This document shows, in pieces, positions 3,001 through 25,914 of a stretch of 25,914 nucleotides of DNA (positions within the stretch are counted from its first letter, which is position 1; each line of letters starts with the position of its first letter). A model generated the notes under the pieces. The model did not search any database, had not been told where the DNA came from, and saw only the letters and a list, made by a program, of their open reading frames with translations. The position numbers and the translations under genes are program-made. The stretch lies in the IMG/VR virus record IMGVR_UViG_3300025469_000026; one strand, written 5' to 3'. Source of the stretch: a virus.

Positions 3001-5215
3001 TCGCAGTGAACCCTGTTGCCGTTGCGGTCAGCGGATAGACACCTGTACCATTCAACCATGATTCTCCTGTCCCCGCAAAAACATAGTTATTTCCTACCAA
3101 TATTGTTGAGATATTCGTTGTCGTACCTATAAAAGTAGCTGTGGTTCCAATCACTGAAACCGATGTAATGGTAAATATCGGAGTAGCGCATGTCGTAGCA
3201 CCAGCATTCAATGTTCCTGTTGTGCCAGTAACCGTCACGGGTTTTACGCTATAATTACCTGTAGACCAGTCTGTACCTGGCGCAAGAATCATCCCAGCAT
3301 AAAGCGTAGTACCAGAAGGCAATGCAGCGAATGCGTAATCAGAACTGTTCAGAAGATTTGACTGAACGCCATACTGGTAGACCTGCATCAAATTCAAATC
3401 GCCTATTATCTGGCTTATTTCGGAAGAGTTACTGTTAGTTCCACTACTATGATTGGAATTTCCTACCGCCATCAAAGGCGTATTACCCGTACCTATAAAA
3501 ATAGAATTGCGAGAAACACTAGGTATACCCACAAATGGGACTGTGGTATTTGATTCTATTCCAGATTGAAATTGCGTATTTGTCGTAGTAAGTTGTACCG
3601 ACTTACTGTTCGCGGGAATTACCGCTACGCTTGTAAAATTGAATCCCGCTGTTGTTGTTGTTCCGGGAGCAATCCAGTCTGTATCCATATTGATGAAAAA
3701 CTGTGGTGGGTTTGTGTAGGTAGGACAGCTATAAGCGGTAACTACGCCCTCACCTGACTGAATAGACGTATTCACTTCTACTTTCACATCGTGCATGTTA
3801 AGCCAAATCTGTCCACATCCAGACTGACTGTCCAGTACAATAGCAGGCCCAGAATATGAAGCCGTGGATCGATTATCTACTGTTCCCGTCCCTACTTCAA
3901 AACTATCCGAACGACCACGCCAGTAAATGCCTCCTAATTGCGCACCATCTGAACGCCATCCTCCGTTAAATTTAACATTGATACCACCAGTAGGAAAGTA
4001 GTAGGAGTACATCTGCGCCCCTGCTACCCACACGTTCTCGATATTTGTTCCAGTATCAATACGACTACCAAAATAGTATCCAACATCAAAAGGATTACCA
4101 GAATTTCCTATGGCGATGCTTTTAATTTCTTGCATATATCTCGCATTGCCGTCTGTCGCAAATACCACATTCTTTGAGGTTGCTGTACAGGAATCTGTAT
4201 ATGTTCCTGTCAACCATAGGTCATCTGCTCCAACTGCGGTAAACGTACTGCCTGTCGAAGACGTAACTTGCAACAAAATACGATTGAGATAAGGATAAAC
4301 CGTACAACCTTCAATGTCTACCCATGTCCCTGCTGCAAAACTGTTTGTGGATGTAAAATTAACAACCATGGGTGCGCGACGATTCTGAGTTCCTACGCCT
4401 CCAGTAGTTTCTGGAAATGCAGGTGAATAAGTACATCCCGATCCGCCCGTCGTGCAGTTATTACTTACAGTGAAACCGGTTATTGACGCAATAACCCCTG
4501 TCGTTGGAAGATAAGGAAGGATGGTAGGTGGTGTGCCAGCCTGTGAAGCACTCGCAATCGTGCCAACTATCTGACAACCATCGTAGGCATTGATCGTCGC
4601 AGTTGTTTTATATGTATAAGGCCCAGGAAACTCAACTACTCCACCAATTCCTGCATTTGCTTGGTTATAACACGCTGTAAAAGCTGCCTGAATCGCGTCC
4701 GTATCGTCTGTTGTTCCATTACCTACTGCACCGTATGCCCGAACATTAAATGTTGCACCATTGATTCCTAGATTTGCTTGCGCCCCTGGAAGTGTAGGTG
4801 ATCCTGTTCCACCTTCCGGTATCGTGCATGGCGAGCTACTTCCGCATCCCGTTCCTCCTCCACCTCCTACGTTTACACCTGTTATTGTTACCGGAGTACT
4901 ATAAACGTTAGGATAAATACCGCCACTTAACTTTACATCATATCCTCCTGTAGCTACATATATTGGCGGTATAGAACCATCTGAATTAGCTTGCAATGGA
5001 GTCTGTGGTGTAGACGTTGCAATCGTTGTTGTACCTGTCAAATAAACAGTAACAGTACAATAAGGGATTATTCCCTCTAAATAGTTGCTAGATTTCGATC
5101 CTGACGTGACCGCCTGTACACCGTTTTGAACGCAATTATATACAGGGATAGCTGCTGTCTGACCATAAGCCAGAGTAGCGAAAAATAACGTTCCTAATGC
5201 TAAAATCTTCTTCAT
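1..5215 (-). CDS. Large tailspike / tail-fibre-like protein (>=1738 aa, truncated by the left window edge): N-terminal Sec-type signal peptide, pectin-lyase-like beta-helix region, Thr/Gly-rich linkers, SGNH-like domain
   Basis: Not in the ORF track. ATG at 5215 follows GGAGGTAAGTAAC. Manual translation: MKKILALGTLFFATLAYGQTAAIPVYNC... and FNVRAYGAVGNGTTDDTDAIQAAFTAC (about 4755-4675, a classic tailspike/pectate-lyase-3 start motif). Spot checks at about 4080, 3540, 2280, 1800, 1260, 900, 720 and 2-200 were all open in the same frame. Absence from the track fits an ORF with no stop inside the window. Confidence 0.85.
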   Translation of the reverse strand, partial: MKKILALGTLFFATLAYGQTAAIPVYNCVQNGVQAVTSGSKSSNYLEGIIPYCTVTVYLTGTTTIATSTPQTPLQANSDGSIPPIYVATGGYDVKLSGGIYPNVYSTPVTITGVNVGGGGGTGCGSSSPCTIPEGGTGSPTLPGAQANLGINGATFNVRAYGAVGNGTTDDTDAIQAAFTACYNQANAGIGGVVEFPGPYTYKTTATINAYDGCQIVGTIASASQAGTPPTILPYLPTTGVIASITGFTVSNNCTTGGSGCTYSPAFPETTGGVGTQNRRAPMVVNFTSTNSFAAGTWVDIEGCTVYPYLNRILLQVTSSTGSTFTAVGADDLWLTGTYTDSCTATSKNVVFATDGNARYMQEIKSIAIGNSGNPFDVGYYFGSRIDTGTNIENVWVAGAQMYSYYFPTGGINVKFNGGWRSDGAQLGGIYWRGRSDSFEVGTGTVDNRSTASYSGPAIVLDSQSGCGQIWLNMHDVKVEVNTSIQSGEGVVTAYSCPTYTNPPQFFINMDTDWIAPGTTTTAGFNFTSVAVIPANSKSVQLTTTNTQFQSGIESNTTVPFVGIPSVSRNSIFIGTGNTPLMAVGNSNHSSGTNSNSSEISQIIGDLNLMQVYQYGVQSNLLNSSDYAFAALPSGTTLYAGMILAPGTDWSTGNYSVKPVTVTGTTGTLNAGATTCATPIFTITSVSVIGTTATFIGTTTNISTILVGNNYVFAGTGESWLNGTGVYPLTATATGFTATVASGHDGYTNNSDTGTASDHYNLICSSATDMDVAQRVSITGNANLEIQNINALNSSSVVVQMAGGIIPVSTASTLAYVAPTLGAEGVIPTITVSSSFNVIWGVDAASGDNSQVVTITTGSTPPTSHLACDLTLTSNQGSYEMSHWFLSGDTNGTMVLKQYAYSEGGAPVDANYLYLTAPTSSLGTVSFSIVNMSSSYNQAGKLAGTCYNTGSPVFNTVTVAAKTGPVTTVPAHWVNTPQFADATGTGGAVLKNSPTITGASINGVTLTTGGSNTTFLNGAGSYTTPSSGGSFTAGGDLSGTISSQTVIGLDGVPFCTGYTPTDGEAVTLTTASTPNPCYTATTPGGSPFITGLTTTGTYGPATVVSGTLNVPQYSSSFLTGANVVFNSDSGCFDDSGNTLGATITATASSCTSGGHCTVTASNGYVAGQWFQLNSGFNGGPNCSALPYYGTGNRVFQVLSTGLSSTQFEFQTNCLVATSGSGGTIEDATYFISIRTSDLLKSVLATANSWQFRNGLDLTNVYGGTTGMICDQSTNFTAMFGDLLPSVTGKPLYFLEESAGNNDVGQGLSAAQIEACFQSFWAQAHTAGAVVIQNTIPLYNGSFGTFEPTVNTVNAWLVLQGKSTSNAAIGQYWDWPGVNTGSFGETGNPFSSTYVAQMPPAWAGVVTAPGTGFVSFNCNSAANCAPIKNPIFTGSYLQTFGTLALGNYNTGEGYANWYGNGVSGGYYTRVWMPYNGGGLAIGQYAKLSAIDADMGYCSSGNINGTWLLSTSNAGIYRCTGYNAAAEWDLIAGGVPVFKQSTFVTAGTTGTTITSPAINVMTNDLLYVACQNTSSDGSATVTDSLGNIWNQEYDYNYGTMHLRPSWTIQKQYYPGSDTFTCTFSGSVSGAMIVLDYSGTGNSKNTFAANNGSGYGYSYGPSLTTSQKTLVINCTTTATAGYNGFLPGSIGGNPAQIRQVDYANASGSGADMACSDTTFTNAVTGFTAFGPFLGNPGNVNT

Positions 5216-5216
5216 G

Positions 5217-5426
5217 TTACTTACCTCCCGATTGAGCCACTGTTAAAACTGTCAAACTGTCTTTCTCTACCAATAAATCAACCCCAAAATAAGGGCATGA
5301 TTTGTTAGAGCATGACACCATGAAAAACTTACTTGCTGTCCAAGGAAGTTGATTCGGATTCGCTGTCCCACAACTAGGACAACTCAATAGCGCGGGAGTT
5401 GTCCACTGGTATCCTGGAGTAATCAT
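5217..5426 (-). CDS. Small hypothetical protein with a CxxC...CxxxxC zinc-ribbon-like motif
   Basis: ORF track 69 aa with CPSC and CSNKSC; tightly packed in the operon with an AGG-type RBS upstream. Confidence 0.7.
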   Translation of the reverse strand: MITPGYQWTTPALLSCPSCGTANPNQLPWTASKFFMVSCSNKSCPYFGVDLLVEKDSLTVLTVAQSGGK

Positions 5427-5437
5427 AAAAAAACCTC

Positions 5438-5845
5438 TTACTTCGTTGCTTGCAGCGTTACTGAAACAGGATTAGCCAACGTTTTCAGATATGCCGCAAT
5501 AAACTTAGGCCAGATATTGCTTGCCATGTCGTAACGATACGTGTACGATCCTGTTGAAACCCCAACTTGACTAGCTTGCGTAATGCTCCCTATTTTTACA
5601 AAACTCGTCGGTGTATCACTATTTGCTGCAAGAATGTCTACCTCAAAGTTTCCCGGATTTCCTGAAAACGTAAGCTCAAACGACAAACCCCAAGGATAAA
5701 TCACGTTGGGAACACGCTCTAGCTGGTACGCTACACTCAGAGAAACAGGATAAGTATCCACGGGAACCGTTTCTGTCTCCCACATATATACTTGACGATT
5801 TGCTGGTAACAATTGTGCAAGGCCACTTCCTGGATATGCTGGCAT
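5438..5845 (-). CDS. Putative virion structural protein (tail / head-closure region)
   Basis: 135 aa beta-rich ORF with AGGAGG RBS, located between the adaptor-like gene and the tailspike; function inferred from position only. Confidence 0.65.
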   Translation of the reverse strand: MPAYPGSGLAQLLPANRQVYMWETETVPVDTYPVSLSVAYQLERVPNVIYPWGLSFELTFSGNPGNFEVDILAANSDTPTSFVKIGSITQASQVGVSTGSYTYRYDMASNIWPKFIAAYLKTLANPVSVTLQATK

Positions 5846-5857
5846 TTTTATTTCCTC

Positions 5858-7102
5858 CTACCGCTCAAACCAACCGACATTGCCGGTCCTGTTATTGTTC
5901 ATTGATGAATCGCCGTTGTTTGGAATATTTCTACGCGCCTTTGTCAAATACAGATCAGAGATATTCCTATCTACAATCCTTATTCTCTTGAGACGATCCA
6001 CGTATTCTTCGTGGTATGCCTTTGCTAAAAACTGCCAATTTGCTCCCGACCCGCGTTCCATCTCGTCTCCGCGCTGCCCTTCTTTCCAGAGGGAGCACAT
6101 TTCGTAGGCTCTTTGTCTTACTAACTCTTCTGTAAGTGGAAAAGGAAGAGTATCAGTAGGCAAAGATAACTCAGGCCAGTTACACTCGCATTGAAATGTA
6201 TACGGAAGTTGGCTAGTTGGTCCAGGCCATAATTCAAAAAGTTGCTGACCATAAGTTGCACTACCCGGTCTAGTGTCTGGACCAAAAGGTACTACAAAGC
6301 TAGGTTGGCTAAATATCGTCCTTTGTGGGTCTTCGTTCGCTAAGTCCGCTTGCGACATACTCGTAAAATCCATAAATTGATTATTCGTGTAATCGCTAAT
6401 TTGCATCCATCTCCTAAAACCTAGAGGAGCAGGATAGTAAGCCTGATAAATTAAGTAGCTACCGTTCGTCTGAGACGGTTCCATCCACGGCCTATCAATC
6501 GTCAACGTAGCAATTAAAGTAACTGAGAACGTAGCTGGTGTTCCACCCTCAGACAAAGTAATGTACGGAGTTGTATAGTTACTTCCTGTCGTCAAAACTA
6601 CAGGGGGTAATGTCACGGTTCCGTTTGCATTCACAGTTATTGAAACTGTTCCCGCTGCACCTATAGACGGGTCTAAAACAGGTACAGTATATGTTCCTGG
6701 AGTCTGTCCTGACCCTGGAGTTAGTATCGTCACATAGGCAACCGTTCCGTTATTTCCTTGCGCGATAATGTTATACAATGAATATGTTGGAACACGAATT
6801 TGTTGTTGCGTCAAAAGAGGTGGAGACGTAACGCTATTCCACGCCGCAGTTGCTACTGCATCTCCAGTAATCGTGTTGGTAAATGGTGTTACTGAGATTG
6901 TTCCCGGACTAACTAACTGTGTTTGAGAATTAGGACCACCAAGAGCATTTGGAGTAAGCCATCCTCCAGTTTGTATCTGGAAGTTCCAGACGTTTTCATT
7001 TTGAATCGCCGTAAACGCCTCATTTATGCGTGTAGCCGCAAGCCCCCTGTTCATTTCAGAGAACGTACCCAACACATCTTGAATGAGGTTTTGAAACGCC
7101 AC
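5858..7102 (-). CDS. Putative head-to-tail adaptor / tail tubular protein with an inserted Gly/Thr-rich beta domain
   Basis: 414 aa, GTG start after a GGGAG RBS. Helical N-terminus and a C-terminal P..TDTLPFP...EL...AY pattern, as in adaptor-type proteins. Lies downstream of MCP. Confidence 0.55.
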   Translation of the reverse strand: MAFQNLIQDVLGTFSEMNRGLAATRINEAFTAIQNENVWNFQIQTGGWLTPNALGGPNSQTQLVSPGTISVTPFTNTITGDAVATAAWNSVTSPPLLTQQQIRVPTYSLYNIIAQGNNGTVAYVTILTPGSGQTPGTYTVPVLDPSIGAAGTVSITVNANGTVTLPPVVLTTGSNYTTPYITLSEGGTPATFSVTLIATLTIDRPWMEPSQTNGSYLIYQAYYPAPLGFRRWMQISDYTNNQFMDFTSMSQADLANEDPQRTIFSQPSFVVPFGPDTRPGSATYGQQLFELWPGPTSQLPYTFQCECNWPELSLPTDTLPFPLTEELVRQRAYEMCSLWKEGQRGDEMERGSGANWQFLAKAYHEEYVDRLKRIRIVDRNISDLYLTKARRNIPNNGDSSMNNNRTGNVGWFER

Positions 7103-7113
7103 AATTTAACTCC

Positions 7114-7362
7114 CTATTTTCCTGATACCCGTTTGCGAACAACTTTCTTCTTTGTCTGTGGCTTCTTTGCCACATTTCTTGTTTTTGTTACCGTTGCCAC
7201 AATCTTTTTACCCCCAACCGTACTCATGCCCTCTTTGTGGACTTTACCCTTAGCTTTACGAGACTTCTTTGCACGATGATGTTTATACGCAGGATTACCG
7301 TCAAAATGCGCGTCATCCCCGTCTTCCATCCACAACTTTGTCTTCGTCTTTTTTGTTGCCAT
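7114..7362 (-). CDS. Highly basic Lys/Arg-rich small protein (possible DNA-condensing or core protein)
   Basis: 82 aa MATKKTKTKL...KKKVVRKRVSGK; AGGAAAGGGA RBS; lies in the structural operon. Confidence 0.7.
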   Translation of the reverse strand: MATKKTKTKLWMEDGDDAHFDGNPAYKHHRAKKSRKAKGKVHKEGMSTVGGKKIVATVTKTRNVAKKPQTKKKVVRKRVSGK

Positions 7363-7383
7363 CGAAATCCCTTTCCTGTTAAA

Positions 7384-7424
7384 ACGCCCTCCATAGTCAA
7401 CCCTTCCGGGGCTACAGAGGGCGT
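7384..7424 (-). terminator. Intergenic stem-loop (weak terminator or processing site)
   Basis: Minus strand ACGCCCTCTGTAG/CTATGGAGGGCGT stem (G-U pairs on the minus strand), inner CCC-GGAA-GGG tetraloop, followed by TTT. Confidence 0.5.
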
Positions 7425-7477
7425 AAGTTGTCTGTCCACCGGGAGAGGTTTAGATCAGACCTTGTGAAAAATCTTTA

Positions 7478-7807
7478 CTACTGTGGTGCTCCAATCACAC
7501 CCATCTGAATTTGCTCTGCGGAAAGATTTTGACCGGTAACTGCTACCCATGCAGGGAATGTATACCATTTCAACGTCCATCCTTCAGCACTTCCGATTCC
7601 TATCGGCTCAGGAACCGCCGCATAATTTCCACTCAGCGTCACCACTAAACCAGCTAACGGAGCATCAATGTTAAAGGGATTCTCTGTTGAAAGAATGTCC
7701 CCCGTGGTCGAATTGTACGACGCAGGTCCATATCCACTTCCGACGTAAATCTGTCGGTTGCCTACCATTGTCGGATAATCCACATCGTTAATCGATGAAA
7801 GAATCAT
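7478..7807 (-). CDS. Putative virion structural protein
   Basis: 109 aa ORF with AAGGTG RBS in the head module. Confidence 0.65.
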   Translation of the reverse strand: MILSSINDVDYPTMVGNRQIYVGSGYGPASYNSTTGDILSTENPFNIDAPLAGLVVTLSGNYAAVPEPIGIGSAEGWTLKWYTFPAWVAVTGQNLSAEQIQMGVIGAPQ

Positions 7808-8908: not shown

Positions 8909-10174
8909 TTAAGCATGGAACCCGAACGCATAAGCATTCTTGTTAGGCTGGCAGCAATACAGATTCGTAGCCAACTTCAAAAATACTGCATTCATGCTAG
9001 GATTGTCGTACTGCTGCGTTTTACGAGTACCAAAGTTCCAATCTGGATTATTCGTTGTGCGCAGTTTGAATGTCGATGGGTCAAGGAAGTAAATTGCTTC
9101 CGATGGCTGAATAATCGCATTCGATGGCAAATTCGAGTTCGTTGGAGAGAAATTGATTGCCGCTCCAGTGCTGTCATAGAACTGTGGAGTCTGATATGCG
9201 ATTGTTGCAGTGTTCGATCCAATACCATCCTTCAACTGCGTATTGCCTGTCGATCCTGCTGATCCATTGATCGGAATGTAATACTGAGCTACTGCTGAAG
9301 GTGCCAACGGGTCTTTGAAAATCTCTGTTCCGTTGAAGTTAATGGAACTCCAGCTTAGATTGTGGTCACTATGCTGCGTATCGCGGTAATAGGCCATAAG
9401 AGACTTCGCAATCGCCTTGAAACCAAAGACGTTTGTGATTCCCAACTTCGGCTTACCACCCCACATTTCGCACTGAGAACTCAATTGAATCAATGTATCA
9501 AAATCAATCTGCCCAGGCCCGCTAGTTGCAGGAGAAGACGAACTGCTACTGTAGTTTCCTTGACCACAATAGACCGGAGTCACGTTAATCGCCTTGCCAA
9601 TCGCACCATTGCGTAACTGTTCGCCATAGGAAAGATAACGGTTCCCATAAAGCGATGTGTCGATAGCGTTGTTCAGCGCTTCATCAAGGCCGTTTGATGC
9701 CTTATGACGGTCATCACTTACCGTCGAAGATGAATTCTGTCCGTGACGGAAAGCATCCATCGCAAGCATCGTATTGATGTTTTGCATCATAGCACTCATG
9801 AAGATTGAATAGAGATTAAAGATTCTCGACGGACCAGAGTTGATAACTCCGCCGTCCGGTCCCATCTCCCAATCACTATACGGGAAGTTTGATTGGTATC
9901 CCTTCTCGTAGAACTTCAGTTTGTCTGTGATCTGCTGGCGCATCAACGTAACTGTCTGCGCAGGATCGATTGCAGAACCGTTAGGAGTTCCATACAAAAT
10001 CGGCTCTGTCATGCCAGCACCGCCAAGATACGGTTCTGCTACTCCAGCATGGCGAAGTTCGTCAAGAAACGGAGTCCCAACGAAAAACTCGTTCCACACA
10101 ACTTCATCACGAACAGACTCTAGGTTCGCGCTGTCAACTTCAGAAAAAGTTGGATCATTCTGCACGTATGGCAT
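8909..10174 (-). CDS. Major capsid protein (probable HK97 fold)
   Basis: 421 aa, directly after the scaffold-like gene, AAAGGA RBS. Patterns GG...EPILYG, NSG...IFNL, NGL..AL and final NLYC.QP match MCP-type sequences as I recall them. Confidence 0.75.
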   Translation of the reverse strand: MPYVQNDPTFSEVDSANLESVRDEVVWNEFFVGTPFLDELRHAGVAEPYLGGAGMTEPILYGTPNGSAIDPAQTVTLMRQQITDKLKFYEKGYQSNFPYSDWEMGPDGGVINSGPSRIFNLYSIFMSAMMQNINTMLAMDAFRHGQNSSSTVSDDRHKASNGLDEALNNAIDTSLYGNRYLSYGEQLRNGAIGKAINVTPVYCGQGNYSSSSSSPATSGPGQIDFDTLIQLSSQCEMWGGKPKLGITNVFGFKAIAKSLMAYYRDTQHSDHNLSWSSINFNGTEIFKDPLAPSAVAQYYIPINGSAGSTGNTQLKDGIGSNTATIAYQTPQFYDSTGAAINFSPTNSNLPSNAIIQPSEAIYFLDPSTFKLRTTNNPDWNFGTRKTQQYDNPSMNAVFLKLATNLYCCQPNKNAYAFGFHA

Positions 10175-10216
10175 GTTGTTTCCTTTCAGCTACTTAAGCT
10201 GCTTTCCTGATTTTAA

Positions 10217-11212
10217 TTACGCCGCTACTGTTTGGCGTTGTTCCTCAAAGCGTTTGATTACATTTTGTTGCGTCAATTTCAACCGAGCTTCTGGAGTCAT
10301 CTTCGTCGGGTCTGGACGTTCTCCCGCAGAAACGGCTCTCTTGATTTCTGCTACCCTTGCCGATCCTGGCGGTAAGTGCATATCAGGATGAGAACTAATC
10401 TGCTCGGCCATCTTGCGTTCCTTGGCAGAAAATTCAGCAGCTTGGGCATCCATCTTTGCCTTCCACTCAGATTCCTTTTCGGCTGCGGTTTTTGCAGCAA
10501 TCTCATCATCGTGCTTCTTTGCTTCAGCCGCACGATGCTCCGCTTCCTTCTCCGCAAACTTAAATGTCCTAGCCGCATATTCCATCGGGCTAAGTTTTAG
10601 ACGATCTGCCTCAGATACAAGTTGGCTAGGAGAAATAGGAATCGGAGTTCCATAAAGTTGCTGATACTTCCAGCCAATGTCCTGAATCGTGTGTACTCCC
10701 TGATCCAAACGCTTCATAATCGCATCTTCTGAAAACGTAGGCGTTCCGGGAGTTTTGTTTTGGTCTACCACTGGAGCAGGGGGAGGGGTAAATACTGGAG
10801 CATTTGATGGATCGATTCCTAGTGTCCCAAGGTAACTTTCTCTCTGAGCCTTATAGTAAGCAGCCTCAGCTTTTGCATCTGCCGCTTCTTTGGCCAGTCT
10901 TGCTTTTTCTGCTTCCGCTTCCGCATTCGCAGCAGGATAAACATTTGCCCAAAAATCTTGTGCTTGCCTTACGTTCAGTTCCGCAGCTTCCTGTGCTGCT
11001 ACTGCTGCTGCTGTTGCGGCTTCCTGCGCTTTCCTATCCTCCTCAGCCTTTTGTGCTGCCGCTAATGCCGCTTGTTCCTTTTGCTCTGCTGTCTGATAAA
11101 TGTTTGTAACGTAACTATTGAGACCCGTGCGGGCCTGCGCATCAAGAGCATCAATCTGATCTTGCGTCCAACCGGATTGCTTCAAAACTTCTGCTAATGT
11201 CGGTACTGGCAT
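10217..11212 (-). CDS. Capsid scaffolding protein
   Basis: 331 aa with Ala/Glu/Lys/Gln-rich coiled coils and a basic C-terminal helix, immediately upstream of MCP. Confidence 0.65.
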   Translation of the reverse strand: MPVPTLAEVLKQSGWTQDQIDALDAQARTGLNSYVTNIYQTAEQKEQAALAAAQKAEEDRKAQEAATAAAVAAQEAAELNVRQAQDFWANVYPAANAEAEAEKARLAKEAADAKAEAAYYKAQRESYLGTLGIDPSNAPVFTPPPAPVVDQNKTPGTPTFSEDAIMKRLDQGVHTIQDIGWKYQQLYGTPIPISPSQLVSEADRLKLSPMEYAARTFKFAEKEAEHRAAEAKKHDDEIAAKTAAEKESEWKAKMDAQAAEFSAKERKMAEQISSHPDMHLPPGSARVAEIKRAVSAGERPDPTKMTPEARLKLTQQNVIKRFEEQRQTVAA

Positions 11213-12091: not shown

Positions 12092-14200
12092 TTAGCTCTC
12101 TTTCACAATTGTTCTCGGAGTTCCACCTGCTCCACCTTTTTGTGCAAGACGAGGTTGTTTTTTACCACTTGGATCACGTCCCCCCGCGTGCTGCCCTGCC
12201 GGTCCTTTTCCTCCCTTGCCACCTTGAGGCTGTCCTCCTCCTTCCAATACAGATGGATCAATCCCCATTTCCTTCAACTTCATGAAAGCCTTGGCCTTGG
12301 CAATAATTGCCATGACCTGCAATTCTGTTTCCTCGTTGAAAAACTTTTCTTTTTCCGTCGCGCCCGAAGAATCTCCCCAGTTCGCTATGTCTATTGTTTT
12401 CATCACTGTAGACCAGCTTAACGGGGCACCGGTGCGCTTCAGTTGCAACATCATCATCTGACGCTGCATAGCCGTAATCCTTAGCAGCGTATTCGGCACA
12501 GAAACAAGCCTCAACTTCTTTACAAAATACTTTGCCCGCGTCAGACGATCATACATTGATGGTGTAGTGGGAAATTGACCACCGAATAATTCATCTGGCA
12601 AGTGGCTAGGAACCATATCGTCAGGATTGAAGTCAAACATTTCCTTTGCTATATTGTCTGGCCCTACATACTCAATAAGCCTTCCTGCGTCAAACCATTG
12701 AGGAATAAGAACTTTCATCCTTTCTCCTACGCGCTTGTTGGCTTTTTCTATCCTCATCGCTATCCCCTTAGCGATAGGACCGATAGACTCCAGCATTTTA
12801 TCTGCTGTATCGTTTGCAATGTTCATCTTCATGTTGGCTAGGTTTCCAACATCGTTCAATCCTAGTTGAGCAAGTTCTTTCTCGCCTAGATATTTTAGGT
12901 ATCCTGTATTTTCTCCGGTTACTCGAACTTCTTCTGGAAGAAGAGATTGTAATGTCTTCCTTGGTTCACTCCCACCAAACAATCCTAGCCTTTGATCTGG
13001 TGCAAACATATCCCATGTTTCAATGCTCTTTCCTCCGTTTTCATCTGCGTTATATCCCAACGGAGGGTCCATTTGCGCAGAAAGAACCTGATCCATAAGC
13101 CTTTCATGCTTGCGAATCGTTGATTCAATTGAAGATACATCTCCTACTAACGATCTTCCTAGCGCCTCCCATGCCCAATCATCTACTGTGTACTGAATAA
13201 CAGGTATTTTAGAGTCCCAATCGTAGGAAGTACCGTCATACATCGGCTTGTCGAGTCCTGATGACGTGATGATGAGCCGTAGGTTAGGGTAGATTCGGCA
13301 ATCTTCCACCATTGCAGGACGCATGTATGGTTTACCATCTCTCATCCCTCCAAATATCGGTTGGCCCAAAGACGGAACTTTATAAAACCAAGACGTTCCC
13401 GGCTCGCCGCATTGCATCTCTTTTCCAGAAGTATTGATGCGTATGTCCCTTATAAATGTGTATCTTATCTCCGTATAAAGATTTCCAAAACTGCGACTCT
13501 GTGACTCTCCTACGCTTCCATAACGATACATCGCAGCAAAATCCTGCCGCTGTGCTTGTATCAGTGTCTTGTAATTATTCCGTCCGACTGTTTGTAATTG
13601 TCCTTGGAATAGAGGAAAGTTCGCACACGCCTCGGCAATCGGCATATAATCGTAAATTGTTACAGCGTAAGCATCTTGAACGTCATTTGACTTTGAAGGA
13701 ATCTGGACTGGAACTACATCTAATAGTCCTAGAGCATCAAATTTCATCTCTCTTGGTCCAAAATGATACTCGGACGCAACTACTTTAGGCCATAGGTATC
13801 CAATACCCATGACCGTCGCATACTGCAAAACTTTCAAGATTTGGTAGGGAAAATCAGACTCTAAATAAACACATTTGCTTACCTTTGTAAGCATCTCCGC
13901 CATTGCTTTATAGGCAGGAACATCTGAGCTAAATCCAGCAATTTCACGTACTTCCGCTAAAGTTGTACAAAATTTATTGATATTATATTTTAACTGATTG
14001 GTTACTAACGAACTTCTAGTCTTGTCTTTGAATATACCATCAAAGACACGAAGATTTTTCTCAAGATTTCGGTAGCAGGCTTGACCAGAAAGGAATCCCT
14101 CACCCTCTTTGATTTGTTCCTCAACCCAAGCGATTTTTTCCGCGTTGGATGCTTCAAAATTCGGAACTCGCCATTTTACGGTTTCAAGTTCAGCAGGCAC
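12092..14200 (-). CDS. Portal protein (probable)
   Basis: 702 aa, GTG start after GGGAGG. Size, position between terminase and scaffold/MCP, helical core and a Gln/Gly/Lys-rich C-terminal tail. Confidence 0.7.
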   Translation of the reverse strand: MPAELETVKWRVPNFEASNAEKIAWVEEQIKEGEGFLSGQACYRNLEKNLRVFDGIFKDKTRSSLVTNQLKYNINKFCTTLAEVREIAGFSSDVPAYKAMAEMLTKVSKCVYLESDFPYQILKVLQYATVMGIGYLWPKVVASEYHFGPREMKFDALGLLDVVPVQIPSKSNDVQDAYAVTIYDYMPIAEACANFPLFQGQLQTVGRNNYKTLIQAQRQDFAAMYRYGSVGESQSRSFGNLYTEIRYTFIRDIRINTSGKEMQCGEPGTSWFYKVPSLGQPIFGGMRDGKPYMRPAMVEDCRIYPNLRLIITSSGLDKPMYDGTSYDWDSKIPVIQYTVDDWAWEALGRSLVGDVSSIESTIRKHERLMDQVLSAQMDPPLGYNADENGGKSIETWDMFAPDQRLGLFGGSEPRKTLQSLLPEEVRVTGENTGYLKYLGEKELAQLGLNDVGNLANMKMNIANDTADKMLESIGPIAKGIAMRIEKANKRVGERMKVLIPQWFDAGRLIEYVGPDNIAKEMFDFNPDDMVPSHLPDELFGGQFPTTPSMYDRLTRAKYFVKKLRLVSVPNTLLRITAMQRQMMMLQLKRTGAPLSWSTVMKTIDIANWGDSSGATEKEKFFNEETELQVMAIIAKAKAFMKLKEMGIDPSVLEGGGQPQGGKGGKGPAGQHAGGRDPSGKKQPRLAQKGGAGGTPRTIVKES

Positions 14201-14305: not shown

Positions 14306-15112
14306 CTATCGTCCGTTCTCATAACCCTCGCTGTGTAGAAATGACTCCCTTTGACGTTCCCAAGATTTCGGTTTCTTGCTAGACCACTCTTCCGCCGAAC
14401 GAAGAAAATCACGATTCATATTATTCCTTGCGTTTTCCATCAGTGTTCGCCTATGACGACGAATCTCATCCAATCTCGGTTCTTCAATTGCCCGTCTCCT
14501 CTCGTTCTCAATCCTGAGTTCACGACTTTCCTGCTGGCGTTGGAGTTCCGAATACTTCTCTGCCTCAAATACATTATTGCAAACGATCTTTTGTACATTT
14601 TTCGGAGCAGGACGATCTTCGGGAAGTCCGAGACTCAATCTTCCGTTCCTATCCTTATAGTACACAATCTTCTTGTCAAGTTGTGCTGCCCCTCGAATCC
14701 AAGACTTCGGCCTCAGATCGTATGCCATATCCGATGCGCCTTGGGTAAAACGCTTCCATATATATAGGATAGCGTTCTTGATTCCTGGTCCGCGCATAGG
14801 AAAATCGGTCGTTACCATCCAATCCGTTGCACACCAATGAGTCACATCACTGATTACATCCTTGTTCTCTAGGAAATACGTCCCATTGTAGACAAACCAA
14901 TTCCCGTCATGAAACCAGCAGCACTCCATCCTGCCGTCATGCCATGCAATTACTTTTTGAGAATCCTTAGCGGGTACTCGTTTCTTGACACTCACCCACT
15001 TTTTAGACTCTTTCAATGCACGTGCTTGTTCCTTGCTCTCTTGCTTCAGCGCAGCAAGTTCCGCCTTGAGTTTCGATTCCCGTTGTTCGATCATTCCTTG
15101 CGCGTTAGGCAT
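14306..15112 (-). CDS. Hypothetical protein with a DUF551-like N-terminal domain fused to a coiled-coil phage domain
   Basis: KWVSVKKRVP...VIAW...W...VTHW pattern resembles DUF551; the C-terminus is R/E/Q-rich. Confidence 0.6.
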   Translation of the reverse strand: MPNAQGMIEQRESKLKAELAALKQESKEQARALKESKKWVSVKKRVPAKDSQKVIAWHDGRMECCWFHDGNWFVYNGTYFLENKDVISDVTHWCATDWMVTTDFPMRGPGIKNAILYIWKRFTQGASDMAYDLRPKSWIRGAAQLDKKIVYYKDRNGRLSLGLPEDRPAPKNVQKIVCNNVFEAEKYSELQRQQESRELRIENERRRAIEEPRLDEIRRHRRTLMENARNNMNRDFLRSAEEWSSKKPKSWERQRESFLHSEGYENGR

Positions 15113-15794
15113 TTTTCTTATCCTCGAAATTAGTATAATACCCTACATACGATTGCGTTGCCGCCCTCACCCATACTGTAGGATACTTCCCTCCTCCAGA
15201 CGCGGTCAAATCGCCGCTAAGTGCAATGGAGTTAATTTTATACCATCCATTTCTCACGGATTCTATGAACCGTTCCATCGTCATCGGATAACTAAACTTT
15301 GTCGTATACCAACCAGACTTCTCTAAAAATTCTTTTCTTGATTGATAAAACCTAGTAAACCCCATCCTCTTTAATTGGTGCTGCGTAGTATCTCCAGGAG
15401 CCGACACTTGCTCAATTACAAGCAATGGTCCTCTCGGATCAATACATTCCTCTCCGTAATACCTAGCAATTTGTGCAACGATTGGAACTAACTCTACTGG
15501 ACTCTGCTCGTGCGAAACATATTCCGCTACCTGTACGCAAGGTTCATCTATTTTTCCTACGCGCATCACAGAAATCACGGATGGGTCTACTCCAAGTCCA
15601 TGCCCTGTTTCAACCCCTATACTATAATCGTATCCTTCGCGTGGTTCCTCGTAAATCGTCAAACCGTCTATTTCAAGTTTTCCTATCGCAATAGGAGAAT
15701 ACTCTTTAGGTGTTATCTCCGCAAATATGTTCGGCGCAACCGCTGCAGTAGCCGCTCCGATACCTAAAAACTTAAAGAATGTTCGTCTGTTCAT
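15105..15794 (-). CDS. Stand-alone paralog of the terminase RNase-H-like nuclease domain carrying a twin-arginine (Tat) signal peptide; probably catalytically degenerate
   Basis: Likely start ATG 15794 (AAAGGT RBS): MNRRTFFKFLGIGAATAAVAPNIFA|E. Aligns by eye with the C-terminal third of the adjacent TerL (YDYSIGVETGHGL vs FDYACGVDTADGL; IEQVSAPGDTTQHQLKRMGF vs IEQVRGPGDTCQNQLKIMGF; GWY, GWY; VRAATQSY vs VRAAAQSY). Confidence 0.8.
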   Translation of the reverse strand: MNRRTFFKFLGIGAATAAVAPNIFAEITPKEYSPIAIGKLEIDGLTIYEEPREGYDYSIGVETGHGLGVDPSVISVMRVGKIDEPCVQVAEYVSHEQSPVELVPIVAQIARYYGEECIDPRGPLLVIEQVSAPGDTTQHQLKRMGFTRFYQSRKEFLEKSGWYTTKFSYPMTMERFIESVRNGWYKINSIALSGDLTASGGGKYPTVWVRAATQSYVGYYTNFEDKKNA

Positions 15795-15874
15795 TATTTC
15801 TGCTACCTTTCTAGTGTGCAAAAGTGAGCACACTGGTTAGTTCCTGCTTCTTCCAAACCGCTTGCCCCATCCCC

Positions 15875-18052
15875 CTACTTCCAGCTTCCTATCGACACCA
15901 TGTTTGACCTACAGACTCCCTCGTTGGGGTCTACTGTCTCTCTCTTAGGTACATAATACCTCTTTTGGCTACGAGATGCAAAGTCATCCAAATCATGCGT
16001 AGTAAAATAACTTTGCGCAGCTGCCCTTACTCGATCATCAAACTGTCCTTCTCTATGTTCCATCTTTGATTTGCTTCCTGTTATGTGACGCTCAAGAGTC
16101 TTGCATTCCTCAATCAACCACTTTGATTTTGGAATATACCATCCTCCGTTAATAGCGTCTACAAAACTCGTCATAAGCATTGGTACGCTCCACGAGTTTG
16201 AGTACCATCCCTGTTTAGTTTTAGATTCATCTTTAATCTTTTTTGAATCATACCTCTTGGGAGCATGATGATAATTAAAACCCATGATCTTTAACTGGTT
16301 TTGGCAAGTATCACCCGGTCCTCTAACTTGTTCAATGGCAAACTTTACCCCTCGATGATCCTTTGTTCTTTTCCCATACCATGTAGCCATACAAGCCACA
16401 AATGGAACCATCTGCGCAGGATTCATCCTCTTGCTCGTTAATTCACAAGCCTGCTCGTCACATCCATCTCCTTTCCCTACTTTAGAAATAGACGCACAAG
16501 CTCTCTCTTCATCTTCTTTATCAAGACCATCTGCCGTATCTACTCCACAAGCATAATCAAATCCTTCTTTTGGTCCCTCATAAACCAATAATTTATCCAT
16601 CGTATCTTTCTCATTGTATTCATTGACTGGAAGCAGTGGAATCATATTCCACTTATATTTCTCTCCTCTTCTTGAAGTCCATTCTACTTCTATAACAGAC
16701 TTATCTTTATCTATTTCTGATTCGTCTGGGTAAAATGTTTCTTCAATTGAGTGTCCAGTAATCGCATAGGCTTGCATCGGTTCACTACGAACCATCTTAT
16801 GTCCTCTTCCGTCTCCTATTACCTCATATACATTATTCTCAACCGCCGCTATAACGTCTGGGTCAAATACTGTGTCATGTACTCCTGTCAATGCTTCATA
16901 GTCATCCGCCGCCATCTGAGCAAGCCAAATCTTTTGCGTGTGATTCTTACACGCTTGGTCATAATTAAATTGCCAAAACCACTGCTGTTCAACTGGCATA
17001 CGCCAATCTTTACCGACTACTCTTGATAAATATGGCGTATTACGAACATAAGACTCACATCGTGTTACGTGCTTTCGCGTTACATCCGAAATTACTCTAT
17101 TCCAATCTCCCGGTACAGGAAACTTACGAACCCAATCATCCTCTGGATAAAGATCAGGAACCATCACCCACGGAATAAAGATAGGACATAATCTGGATTT
17201 TCCTAAAGGCCAATCCTCTTTTGAGCTTTTCCATGTATCAGCAAGCCATCCAGTATTTCCACCTCCCGTTCCCTCAAGGACCATAAACAGATTCCTAGAT
17301 GAGTGCGTTGCTCTTAACAATCCTTCCTCAATCGTCTTCTTCGCATCCTTAAAATCCGCCAACTCTGAGACGTGAATATTTGTAGGCGTCCATCCTTGCG
17401 CTAGACCCGTCGCCTGTGATCCTGATTGAATAGAAAGAATCGACTTGTTTTCATACTCTCTAATATACTGAGAGTCTTTTATCGTGCTAGGAACCAACCA
17501 AAAAGGGCAGTTATCGTGAGCGGTATCAATAATTCTTCCAATCAACTCTGACTTCTTAGATTCTACAGAAGCCATAATTGATTGCGTGTGTGGAATGAAT
17601 AACATACGATTGATAAATTTAAGAGCCGTCTTGGTCGTGATGCCAACCTGGCGAGCCTTCAAGATAATCAGTTCTATAGATACTTGATCTTCGTCGAATT
17701 TTTCAATTACTGAGTCAAATATCTGCTGTGATAGCCTATTTTGAAATTTATATATCTCTCCCTTCTCGTTGCACACGTATGCGTAGCGGCTCTCCCAATA
17801 ATTTGAATCTAAACGACATAACACCTTTTCGTTTTGGATAAATCTCTGTACTTCTTGTATCCTTTTCTCTGTTAATCCAGATTTTACTCTAATATACGTG
17901 TTTTTTGAGTTACTTGAATCATCTTTATATGTGATCTTTTTCATGTATTCTATGAAGTCTTGAACCTCTGCTAGTGAATGATAAACAGGTTCCCAACCTT
18001 CACTAGCAGAGAAGTAGTTTAAGTGCTTATCTATTGTCTTTCTTGAATACAT
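15875..18052 (-). CDS. terL: Terminase large subunit
   Basis: Walker A-like ILKARQVGITT, Walker B-like IHVSE, coupling motif LEGTG, nuclease motifs GVDTADG, IEQ and DDRVRA. Confidence 0.9.
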   Translation of the reverse strand: MYSRKTIDKHLNYFSASEGWEPVYHSLAEVQDFIEYMKKITYKDDSSNSKNTYIRVKSGLTEKRIQEVQRFIQNEKVLCRLDSNYWESRYAYVCNEKGEIYKFQNRLSQQIFDSVIEKFDEDQVSIELIILKARQVGITTKTALKFINRMLFIPHTQSIMASVESKKSELIGRIIDTAHDNCPFWLVPSTIKDSQYIREYENKSILSIQSGSQATGLAQGWTPTNIHVSELADFKDAKKTIEEGLLRATHSSRNLFMVLEGTGGGNTGWLADTWKSSKEDWPLGKSRLCPIFIPWVMVPDLYPEDDWVRKFPVPGDWNRVISDVTRKHVTRCESYVRNTPYLSRVVGKDWRMPVEQQWFWQFNYDQACKNHTQKIWLAQMAADDYEALTGVHDTVFDPDVIAAVENNVYEVIGDGRGHKMVRSEPMQAYAITGHSIEETFYPDESEIDKDKSVIEVEWTSRRGEKYKWNMIPLLPVNEYNEKDTMDKLLVYEGPKEGFDYACGVDTADGLDKEDEERACASISKVGKGDGCDEQACELTSKRMNPAQMVPFVACMATWYGKRTKDHRGVKFAIEQVRGPGDTCQNQLKIMGFNYHHAPKRYDSKKIKDESKTKQGWYSNSWSVPMLMTSFVDAINGGWYIPKSKWLIEECKTLERHITGSKSKMEHREGQFDDRVRAAAQSYFTTHDLDDFASRSQKRYYVPKRETVDPNEGVCRSNMVSIGSWK

Positions 18053-24822: not shown

Positions 24823-25052
24823 ACCTTTTCCTTGTCCTTCCAGTTACCCACTATTCGCTCAACACTGGCGGCGATAGGATACGTGCTAATAGTCTTTTTG
24901 TGAACTCGGCAGTTTGGGTCTAAAGACGTTACCATTATCCCTTGAAGATCGTAGGGTTCCCCACCGTTTCTGCACGAACACTTAGCCTCTGGAGACCACT
25001 TTGCAGTAGTCTCCAGTTCCTCTTCATCTTCGTTTTCGATCCAACGTCTCAT
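24819..25052 (-). CDS. Small hypothetical protein
   Basis: 77 aa; overlaps its neighbours by 4 nt; AAGGA RBS. Confidence 0.6.
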   Translation of the reverse strand: MRRWIENEDEEELETTAKWSPEAKCSCRNGGEPYDLQGIMVTSLDPNCRVHKKTISTYPIAASVERIVGNWKDKEKV

Positions 25053-25914
25053 AAATTGTCCTTATTAGAATTAAGATTCTCCTGTTCTAATTCATCACTA
25101 TAGTTATCGTCACTTTCTTCATTTGAGAATAATCCATAGTTTATACTGGTGGCGTGTTCTATGTTTTTACATCCTTGTTCCCAGTATGATGTTTTTAATT
25201 CGCTTCCGATAAACCGTCTTCCTAGTTGCATTGCAATAAATCCTGTTGATCCTACTCCTGAAAACGGATCGTATATAACATCTTTTGGATTAGACCAAAG
25301 ATGAACACATCTTTCGATTAAGTCTAACGCCATAGGACATATATGTCTTTCGTCTTGATTCTCTCTTGCGCATCTTCCGTTTAACGTGCGAGTAAAATCA
25401 ATATCCATCCACACTGGAGAAGCGTATCTCCTCCATCTCTCATGAGATAATACCCCGTTCTTTGGTGGGTTTTCTCCTGAAAACCATTCTAATCCTTTTT
25501 CATGAGCGATAGGTTCCGCATTCTCTCCCGGTATTCTGAATGCAAGGATGTATTGAGGAATACCAGCCCTCACCATAGATGAATCTTTGCAAAGTTGTTT
25601 ATGCATCAATCCTATTGCTTTGGTTCTTGTCGCTTCTAATAGTGGATCTTTCCACGCACAGTGTTCACTGTGGAATATAAATCCAGCATCTAAAAACTGC
25701 CGAATAATATCACCCCGAAAATCTTTTAATCCAATATATCCATCCCTGCTCTTCATTGCAGGGATATTCATGCAATCTATTGCTACTATTCTCCCTTTTT
25801 TTGTGATCCGAAACAACTCATCTATAAGCACACGAAAGTGTGTTTGAAACTCTTCATCAGTCCTACTGTTCCCCATATCCCTCTCGCTTCCAGAATAGCA
25901 ATATAAGTTCGAGT
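25049..25914 (-). CDS. Phage DNA methyltransferase (N4-C/N6-A, beta class), truncated at the right window edge
   Basis: HICP..L.LIERC..LWSNP.D.IYDPFSGVGSTG (SAM-binding motif I) and RRFIGSELK. The frame continues upstream as ...SNLYCYSGSERDMGNS to the edge; the SPP(F/Y) motif is expected just outside the window. Confidence 0.9.
   Translation of the reverse strand, partial: SNLYCYSGSERDMGNSRTDEEFQTHFRVLIDELFRITKKGRIVAIDCMNIPAMKSRDGYIGLKDFRGDIIRQFLDAGFIFHSEHCAWKDPLLEATRTKAIGLMHKQLCKDSSMVRAGIPQYILAFRIPGENAEPIAHEKGLEWFSGENPPKNGVLSHERWRRYASPVWMDIDFTRTLNGRCARENQDERHICPMALDLIERCVHLWSNPKDVIYDPFSGVGSTGFIAMQLGRRFIGSELKTSYWEQGCKNIEHATSINYGLFSNEESDDNYSDELEQENLNSNKDNL

Follow-up and report, generated by a model that had tools for sequence, protein, structure and literature searches.

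Why would a phage keep, directly behind an intact gene for its large terminase subunit (terL), a second copy of only the nuclease domain, with its active site altered and what looks like an export signal at its N terminus? The question is raised by IMG/VR virus record IMGVR_UViG_3300025469_000026, a stretch of viral DNA of 25,914 nucleotides (hereafter the window), in which a gene of 229 codons plus stop, at 15105..15794 on the minus strand, encodes a leader of twin-arginine translocation (Tat) type, a linker, and a domain resembling the nuclease of TerL. An initial annotation had described it as a duplicate of the terminase nuclease carrying a twin-arginine leader beside an intact terL, a description that is borne out by BLASTP, by AlphaFold2 modeling with Foldseek comparison, and by hidden Markov models (HMMs) of Tat signals. 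Our reading, to which we give about an even chance, is that the product is a Tat signal peptide joined by a flexible linker to a catalytically dead TerL-nuclease domain and represents a non-catalytic, envelope-delivered allele of a Tat-export cassette. To our knowledge, no terminase nuclease domain has been described other than as the part of the packaging motor that does the cutting, and phage proteins that leave the cytoplasm do so with Sec signals, lipoboxes, or membrane anchors. Full-text searches of the literature gave no phage-encoded Tat substrate of such kind and no exported or inactivated terminase-nuclease paralog, in keeping with the earlier statement that no example had been described, and a 2026 review of Tat deals with phages in other contexts only, with no mention of phage-encoded Tat substrates (PMC13673990).

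A terminase-nuclease paralog that has lost its catalytic centre

Within the window, the closest relative of the paralog is the nuclease domain of the phage's own TerL (about 15878-16609). The two proteins align with 41% identity over 158 residues (TerL 482-639 of 725 amino acids [aa]; BLASTP E value, 1e-35), and they have in common the motifs I-E-Q, P-G-D-T-x-Q-x-Q-L-K, G-W-Y, and A-A-x-Q-S-Y. An AlphaFold2 model of the paralog, built from a 50-row alignment, has a predicted local distance difference test score (pLDDT) of 83.9, with low values for residues 1-40 and a confident alpha/beta domain at residues 45-222. The top Foldseek match of this model is the nuclease domain of RB49/T4 gp17 (E value, 2e-9; template modeling [TM] score, 0.74-0.78 by target), followed by G20c, P74-26, HCMV UL89, HSV pUL15, and SPP1 G2P (E values up to 1e-3), and searches of BFVD and the ESM Atlas recovered large terminases only. 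BLASTP, Foldseek, BFVD, and the ESM Atlas agree in placing a domain of the TerL-nuclease (RNase H-like) fold at residues 45-229 (15108..15662, minus strand). The paralog has no Pfam or PHROG match; the phage's own TerL is also without a Pfam match and has weak PHROG matches only. A split TerL was rejected as an explanation for the gene, since the TerL of the window (725 aa; 15875..18052, minus strand) is complete, with all catalytic motifs, among them G-V-D505, I-E574-Q, and D672-D673.

The catalytic centre of the family was assessed in an alignment of 35 leader-bearing proteins and 15 TerL nuclease domains, in which 33 paralogs and 14 TerL domains were scored. The 14 TerL domains without exception keep the D-D pair and the acidic residues of G-[VI]-D (Asp) and [IV]-E-Q (Glu), and in all of them another Asp, another Glu, and a His are invariant too; among the 33 leader-bearing paralogs each of these positions is variable or deleted, with the I-E-Q Glu alone retained. 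The column of the first catalytic Asp holds E, D, Y, V, F, Q, S, H, or G across the paralogs, and the beta-hairpin segment before the D-D pair (L-E-R-H...K-M-E-H in TerL) is deleted in the close group. The alignment equates Glu62 of the window copy (15609..15611, minus strand) with the first catalytic Asp (G-V-D505 in TerL) and Thr206-Val207 (15174..15179, minus strand) with the TerL D-D pair, which is lost throughout the close family; F-D672-D673-R-V-R-A in TerL corresponds to P-T206-V207-W-V-R-A in the paralog. Glu128 (15411..15413, minus strand) in the I-E-Q motif, matching TerL I-E574-Q, is the sole carboxylate of the catalytic centre that almost all paralogs retain. A profile match to RB49 gp17, itself marginal, sets G-V-D on the strand-1 Asp and the D-D region on its H-D-D. 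Alignment with the phage's own TerL thus reproduces the motif changes that the initial annotation had reported (GVD to GVE and FDDRVRA to PTVWVRA) as well as the retained IEQ. The catalytic centre is relaxed across the family, and a catalytically active nuclease from the window gene is very unlikely, as had been supposed at the outset. Compared with the C-terminal nucleases of known large terminases (T4/RB49 gp17, G20c, P74-26, and SPP1 G2P; Terminase_6C), the paralog has the same RNase H-like fold and the motifs of its own TerL, but it stands alone, without the packaging ATPase domain and the TerL C-terminal tail, its first Asp is unconstrained, its D-D pair, His, and beta-hairpin are lost, and it bears an N-terminal signal peptide.

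Metagenomic phages contain more than 40 stand-alone relatives of the gene; we refer to related contigs by L-numbers and to the matches of a representative search by P-numbers. A word-indexed search recovered 27 relatives that stand alone, with lengths of 127-251 aa (204-251 aa in 24 of them) and 45-62% identity. The exhaustive representative search gave 317 matches, 88 of them no longer than 460 aa, and about 40 of these 88 have a Tat-like N terminus, the remainder being TerLs or TerL fragments. Phages with an RR-leader paralog of TerL can therefore be counted in dozens, with the same RR leader and the same start kept. An alignment of 24 sequences contains 28 invariant columns, and the ratio of nonsynonymous to synonymous substitution rates (dN/dS; Nei-Gojobori) in the mature part is 0.19 in the least saturated pair (dS, 0.62) and 0.11-0.28 in other pairs, in which dS is saturated; population variants of the window protein are 99-100% identical and of no use for this measure. 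The paralog is a maintained gene family under purifying selection, which answers the concern, raised with the first description, that it might be a duplicate in decay. The gene order terL, paralog, downstream gene, and portal recurs in L004, L006-L014, and other contigs, sometimes with small extra genes between, and a few copies of the paralog are located away from terL.

Maximum-likelihood trees place 33 of the 35 leader-bearing domains in one group apart from all TerL domains, with a Shimodaira-Hasegawa-like approximate likelihood ratio test (SH-aLRT) value of 98. P0034, P0151, and P0097 carry unrelated Tat-like leaders and group with the P0047 TerL (SH-aLRT, 88-95). This topology suggests that the fusion of a TerL nuclease to a Tat leader may have arisen twice; in an approximately unbiased (AU) test, a single clade for all Tat-fused TerL-nuclease copies was not rejected (P = 0.29).

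One allele, at L002:2912-3550, lies away from terL and follows a 449-aa gene that is unrelated to TerL, in a block that also holds genes for endonuclease VII and for a phage lysozyme (PF00959). This setting indicates that the cassette or its cargo moves between contexts.

The leader peptide and its exchangeable cargos

The N terminus of the window protein reads MNRRTFFKFLGIGAATAAVAPNIFA|E. Tat HMMs and conservation delimit a predicted signal peptide at residues 1-25 (15720..15794, minus strand), made up of MNRRTFFK, the core FLGIGAATAAVAP, and N-I-F-A; the core comprises 13 uncharged residues rich in Gly, Ala, and Thr, and signal peptidase I is predicted to cut after A25 (IFA|E). The leader residues have pLDDT values of 52-59, and they are followed by a linker at residues 26-44 (15663..15719, minus strand; pLDDT, 58-62) that is variable in length and sequence among homologs, where it occupies columns 35-95 of the alignment. 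The window has the Tat motif N-R-R-T-F-F-K, and most relatives have N-R-R-S-F-F-K, compared with the consensus (S/T)-R-R-x-F-L-K, and the leader consensus of the relatives is MNRRSFFKFLGIGAATAAVAPKxLA. This consensus leader passes the TIGR01409 model at 17.3-24.9 bits, and the model matches 20 of the 35 leader-bearing members at an E value of ≤0.05. P-K precedes x-L-A in 14 of 18 loci, with small residues at position -1, and the residue after L-A varies among E, D, G, S, V, L, K, and N. More distant subfamilies have other leader sequences with the same Tat features (RR-x-F/L, an uncharged core, and an A-x-A-like end), and in P0097 the RR leader is followed by a lipobox (L-P-A-C), which makes sense only with an exported protein. 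With the twin arginine and a Lys on the N side of the 13-residue core, the cargo would be expected outside the cytoplasm, and we consider genuine Tat targeting of the leader likely.

These features have counterparts in bacterial Tat substrates, which likewise combine N-R-R-x-F-F-K, a G/A/T-rich core, a mostly Pro-Lys c-region, and an L-A end. Unlike those substrates, the gene lies in a phage late operon, and its leader is far more conserved than its cargo and occurs on unrelated cargos. When seven phages are compared pairwise, identity averages 76% in the leader, compared with 72% in the portal, 68% in TerL, and 55% in the mature domain. Conservation acts on the peptide: dN/dS of the leader is 0.03-0.18, its Arg residues are encoded by AGA, AGG, CGC, CGT, CGA, and CGG, its Ala residues by all four codons, and Gly and Leu by three each, and the DNA upstream of the leader is unrelated between phages, the Shine-Dalgarno (SD) sequence excepted. 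Because synonymous sites vary freely and the flanks are unrelated, the leader is conserved as a peptide and not as DNA, and we rejected a DNA-level element (a pac site, an RNA structure, or a recombination flank) on the same grounds. A 7-bp hairpin in the spacer was no better than in shuffled sequences (z = -0.69).

The leader is not confined to TerL-like proteins. In related contigs, including L015, L016 (two genes in tandem), L018, L020, L025, L026, and L028, the same leader occupies the same slot, directly upstream of a homolog of the 268-aa gene that follows the paralog in the window, with other cargos attached. A region-restricted search with leader residues 1-40, covering proteins of 78-251 aa, identified 56 proteins of 84-249 aa that carry the leader, and with the leader removed these fall into about 10-14 unrelated cargo groups. 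The cargos include a domain of ~120 aa (L016, L020/L021, L025, and L026), one of ~75 aa (L015), and still others in L028 and L029. In L018 and L027 the cargos are 60-80 aa long, and their C-terminal 40-50 residues copy portal residues at about 413-461, and are 37-45% identical to the portal of each of these phages (E values, 1e-8 to 6e-12); the second L016 gene has a weaker likeness (E value, 1e-5 against its own portal). These portal-like cargo genes lie at L018:13285-13554, L027:10988-11257, and L016:4556-4879, and their source segment corresponds to 12818-12964 (minus strand) of the window. A model of the portal has a pLDDT of 44.5, too poor to place the copied segment firmly; in it the segment appears as a short strand and a long helix after the putative clip. 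The other cargos gave no solid Pfam or PHROG match and no Atlas match, the L015 cargo having a sub-threshold match to Podovirus_Gp16 (E value, 0.003).

At the 3' end, most leader-cargo genes close with a ...AGAAATGNNTAR junction (A-G-A-A-A-T-G-N-N-T-A-R), in which the stop codon overlaps the next start, and this conserved stop/start junction accounts for the recurrent K-R-N-[AVG] C termini. Each phage contig examined has one cassette slot, in genomes of roughly 80-134 kb, and the window has a single open reading frame (ORF) with the leader. Judged from these loci, the window gene represents a polymorphic locus whose 5' export module and 3' junction are both fixed, and among its alleles it is the largest and the most widespread. 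The leader, with at least ten other small cargos in related phages, suggests a phage system, previously undescribed, that may export folded proteins. Polymorphic toxin-type loci similarly join a fixed N-terminal export module to exchangeable C-terminal domains (PMC3482391); here the 3' junction is fixed too, no toxin domain was recognised, and the downstream gene is the same for any cargo and so is not a matched immunity gene.

Three further observations concern the makeup of individual cassettes. The two tandem leader-cargo genes of L016 span 4176-4879. On the ENA contig of P0024/P0199 a 130-aa cargo gene (9592-9984) stands directly before a C-terminally truncated TerL-like copy (10001-10615). 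The linker ...E-x-Y-P-E-S-N-G-G-x-I-T-L-K-M-L-Q-D... is common to TerL-like alleles (P0011/P0014) and to the ~120-aa cargo (L020:3925 and L025:1761), and its presence on unrelated cargos points to mosaic recombination inside the cassette.

Possible roles of the protein

No sigma-70-like promoter or intrinsic terminator signal above chance was found from terL to the portal gene (of promoters, sigma-70-type sites only were covered), and the gene is therefore read as part of the late operon. On our reading it would be transcribed with the late packaging and head genes and translationally coupled to the next gene; the domain would fold in the cytoplasm, the host Tat translocase would carry it out in folded form, the leader would be cut off after ...F/L-A, and the mature domain would serve as a non-enzymatic binding module outside the cytoplasm. 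We infer actual Tat export and cleavage, and a binding role in the envelope, from the sequence features described above. In the cassette, the leader and the 3' junction are the constant parts, and the cargo is swapped among a copy of the TerL nuclease, a copy of a portal segment, and small, mostly basic domains.

As to what the exported domain might do, we favour interference with, or sensing of, superinfecting phages at the envelope, a doubtful assignment, in which periplasmic binding of incoming DNA or of the ejection apparatus would serve exclusion or the timing of lysis. It is favoured because phage accessory proteins that are exported and variable typically act in exclusion, because HxsA and RI provide precedents, and because the cargos are mostly basic. 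HxsA, of the HXS system, is a processed periplasmic bacterial effector that reportedly arrests phage DNA entry and is proposed to engage the incoming DNA, a precedent for the action proposed here, and it differs in being host encoded, matured by radical-SAM enzymes, and of another fold, with no homology found to the paralog (PMC13128918). In T4, the antiholin RI carries a signal peptide and is proposed to sense phage DNA in the periplasm (PMC8385771). Like RI, the phage proteins T4 Imm and Sp, T5 Llp, Cor, and TP-J34 Ltp resemble the paralog in being extracytoplasmic accessories (here by prediction) at a variable locus; they have Sec signals, lipoboxes, or membrane anchors, none is built on the terminase fold, and they are mostly early or lysogenic genes, in contrast to the late operon here. 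Taken more broadly, and tentatively, the loci may belong to an uncultured phage lineage of soil or peat type with a polymorphic Tat-export system, in which dead copies of TerL and portal parts in the periplasm would control the entry of rival genomes or the timing of lysis.

If this is true, phages would here be seen for the first time to encode a Tat effector system and to use the terminase fold outside the cytoplasm. Export would mean that phages exploit the route for folded proteins, would define a new class of envelope-acting phage accessories to screen for exclusion, lysis control, and counter-defence, and would make the short conserved leader usable as a tool for Tat export. The family is also a natural example of a core virion-assembly domain that has been duplicated, inactivated, and seemingly redeployed, and it presents a pairing of a non-catalytic terminase fold with a twin-arginine signal, under purifying selection in dozens of phages.

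Several observations weigh against an exported binding module. The leader of the window protein itself falls just below the cut-offs of both Tat models, with 15.0 bits for TIGR01409 (cut-off, 16.7) and 16.9 bits for PF10518 (cut-off, 22.7), and N22 replaces the c-region Lys of its relatives. P0012 (M-N-I-R-S-F-F-K...) and P0035 (M-N-I-R-G-F-L-E...) have I-R in place of the twin arginine, which is unusual for a functional Tat signal. Conservation of the leader beyond that usual in signal peptides could mean that the leader has a specific partner in place of TatBC or in addition to it. The charge trend across the family, with a median isoelectric point (pI) of 8.8 for mature paralogs and 8.1-10.0 for other cargos compared with 6.1 for TerL domains, hints at DNA binding, but the mature domain of the window copy is acidic (pI, 5.3) and has no beta-hairpin, and DNA binding is not evident for it. 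Nothing in the analyses here ties any cargo to an envelope target, exclusion genes, as a rule expressed early or from a prophage, seldom lie in a late operon without a promoter of their own, and the presence of a Tat system in the host is assumed.

A different reading, the main one of the initial annotation, makes the protein a cytoplasmic decoy, in which the dead nuclease, or the portal segment in relatives, would mimic the targets of Avs1-4 or Upx and soak up the sensors or tether or co-export them through Tat. TerL is sensed by Avs1-3 and the portal by Avs4, and two cargo families copy parts of TerL and of the portal; the TerL-nuclease and Tat fusion may have arisen twice, and Tat carries folded proteins and bound partners too, as Rodrigue is said to have reported in 1999. 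Avs tetramers are, however, far bigger than known Tat cargo, export would take the decoy out of the sensors' compartment, and a free nuclease domain could trigger a sensor instead of blocking it. SeAvs3 binds the nuclease domain in its native state, and isolated nuclease domains can trigger KpAvs2, but the active-site residues reportedly read by SeAvs3 are those lost in the family, and EcAvs2 and Upx read the TerL ATPase domain, so that the surface they recognise is missing from the paralog (PMC13601566). Moreover, most cargos with the leader are unrelated small proteins, and the locus looks like a general export cassette and not like a device specific to TerL. PADLOC gave no match and no anti-defence family was recognised, and membership in a known defence or anti-defence family was rejected for want of a PADLOC match. 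We regard the decoy as improbable.

The initial annotation had also suggested a dominant-negative modulator of packaging or a membrane anchor for it. The location of the gene within the late operon, after terL and before portal, and cargos that include copies of a TerL part and a portal part, could instead point to a modulator of packaging or assembly at the membrane, with the leader tethering its cargo to the membrane or to TatBC short of full export and the TerL- or portal-like piece competing with or organising TerL-portal contacts. T4 portal assembly begins at the inner membrane, and the copied portal segment, tentatively and in a poor model, corresponds to the clip end and stem helix, the region where the terminase docks. 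Topology rules nevertheless place the cargo outside (RR and Lys before a 13-residue core), and a stable transmembrane helix would need a longer core. The paralog is without the C-terminal tail of TerL, the other cargos are unconnected with packaging, and some related phages have no TerL-like cargo, so it would not be a core assembly factor. Such a modulator is unlikely in our estimation.

We give similarly little credence to a function centred on the leader, with the cargo as a folded passenger. An abundant late Tat substrate might saturate or occupy the host translocase and, if amidase export were blocked for instance, leave the envelope weaker, and so aid lysis or deprive rivals; saturation of Tat export is a known phenomenon, reportedly described by DeLisa in 2004. 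That the leader is the most conserved part and that cargos are interchangeable among unrelated folds agrees with this possibility. Against it, the TerL-like cargo has been kept for long, with a dN/dS of about 0.19 and many invariant residues, beyond what foldability alone would demand, and TerL-nuclease fusions recur with unrelated leaders.

Still less probable is a capsid-targeting leader, by which the cargos would enter the prohead, lose the leader to the prohead protease, and be injected with the DNA. T4 IPI, IPII, and IPIII have a conserved capsid-targeting leader, a hypervariable and mostly basic cargo, and a fixed locus among head genes, and the architecture here matches that of the T4 internal protein (IP) locus, its conserved leader preceding hypervariable cargo at one constant site in the head region. 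The leader is about as conserved as TerL and portal, as a peptide that docks on a phage structure would be, and the cargos are mostly small and basic, as internal proteins are. The T4 leader, however, is an amphipathic capsid-targeting peptide, whereas the leader here fits Tat signal models, and its hydrophobic G/A-rich core is unlike known capsid-targeting sequences. Distant subfamilies retain the Tat features and not the sequence, one member (P0097) has a lipobox, and the variable residue after L-A leaves no fixed protease site of L/I-x-E type.

Finally, a decaying tandem duplicate of the 3' half of terL with a chance RR start and no function would suit a gene directly after terL that evolves faster than TerL (55% versus 68% mean identity) and could have arisen by a single tandem duplication that fused a leader gene with the half coding for the nuclease, but we rejected it, and attach to it only a very small probability, given the stand-alone relatives with intact ORFs in dozens of diverged phages, some copies lying away from terL, the 28 invariant columns in 24 sequences, the dN/dS of about 0.19, and the peptide-level conservation of the leader.

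Neighbouring genes, relatives, and host

The gene order on the minus strand is terL, paralog, a 268-aa gene, and portal (12092..14200). The terL stop is at 15875, and the paralog ORF begins 80 nucleotides (nt) downstream of it, after a spacer at 15795..15874 that holds the ribosome-binding site AGAAAGG at 15806-15812, 11 nt upstream of the ATG. An alternative upstream GTG at 15833 would add 13 residues and give a 242-aa protein; ATG 15794 was taken as the start because most homologs begin at M-N-R-R behind an SD sequence of their own. At its other end the gene overlaps the next by 8 nt (15105..15112, minus strand), its end (A-ATG-CC-TAA) containing the ATG of the 268-aa gene (14306..15112, minus strand), which is translationally coupled to the paralog. 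Whatever the cargo, nearly every related locus has a homolog of the 268-aa gene behind its leader-cargo gene, and some relatives have just the C-terminal half of the 268-aa gene (residues 143-266).

A search of 185,579 species-representative genomes yielded no prophage copy, returning one irrelevant Tat protein from a metagenome-assembled genome of Flavobacteriales. Among 50,697 phage records TerLs alone matched, with no cultured relative of the paralog. The nearest cultured phage is Tunturiibacter phage Tunturi_1, which infects an acidobacterium and has a TerL 27% identical to that of the window; its gene between terL and portal has no leader, and the 268-aa gene is weakly like this Tunturi_1 gene (27% over 51 aa; pairwise E value, 0.005). 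The G+C content of the window is 44.8%, and SD sites stand before most of its genes, which argues against a Bacteroidota host.

Many TerLs of this phage group are long, at least 1,000 aa (P0047, P0033, P0038, and other matches of 1,000-1,350 aa), and a long TerL is also encoded on the ENA contig of P0022 (gene 4784-7789). At least some of the long TerLs carry inteins, with a weak match to Pfam Intein_splicing and a Hint-like insert visible in P0047. At one end of the window (2-5215, minus strand), in the virion module, lies a giant tailspike-like ORF of more than 1,738 aa, whose N terminus (at 5215) has a Sec-type signal peptide (M-K-K, a hydrophobic core, and A-Y-G|Q), followed by a pectate-lyase-like region with the motif G-D-G-x-T-D-D; it is a second late-operon protein with an export-like look. 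Near the opposite edge, 25049-25876 (minus strand) encodes an N6/N4 DNA methylase (PF01555; E value, 1.6e-19).

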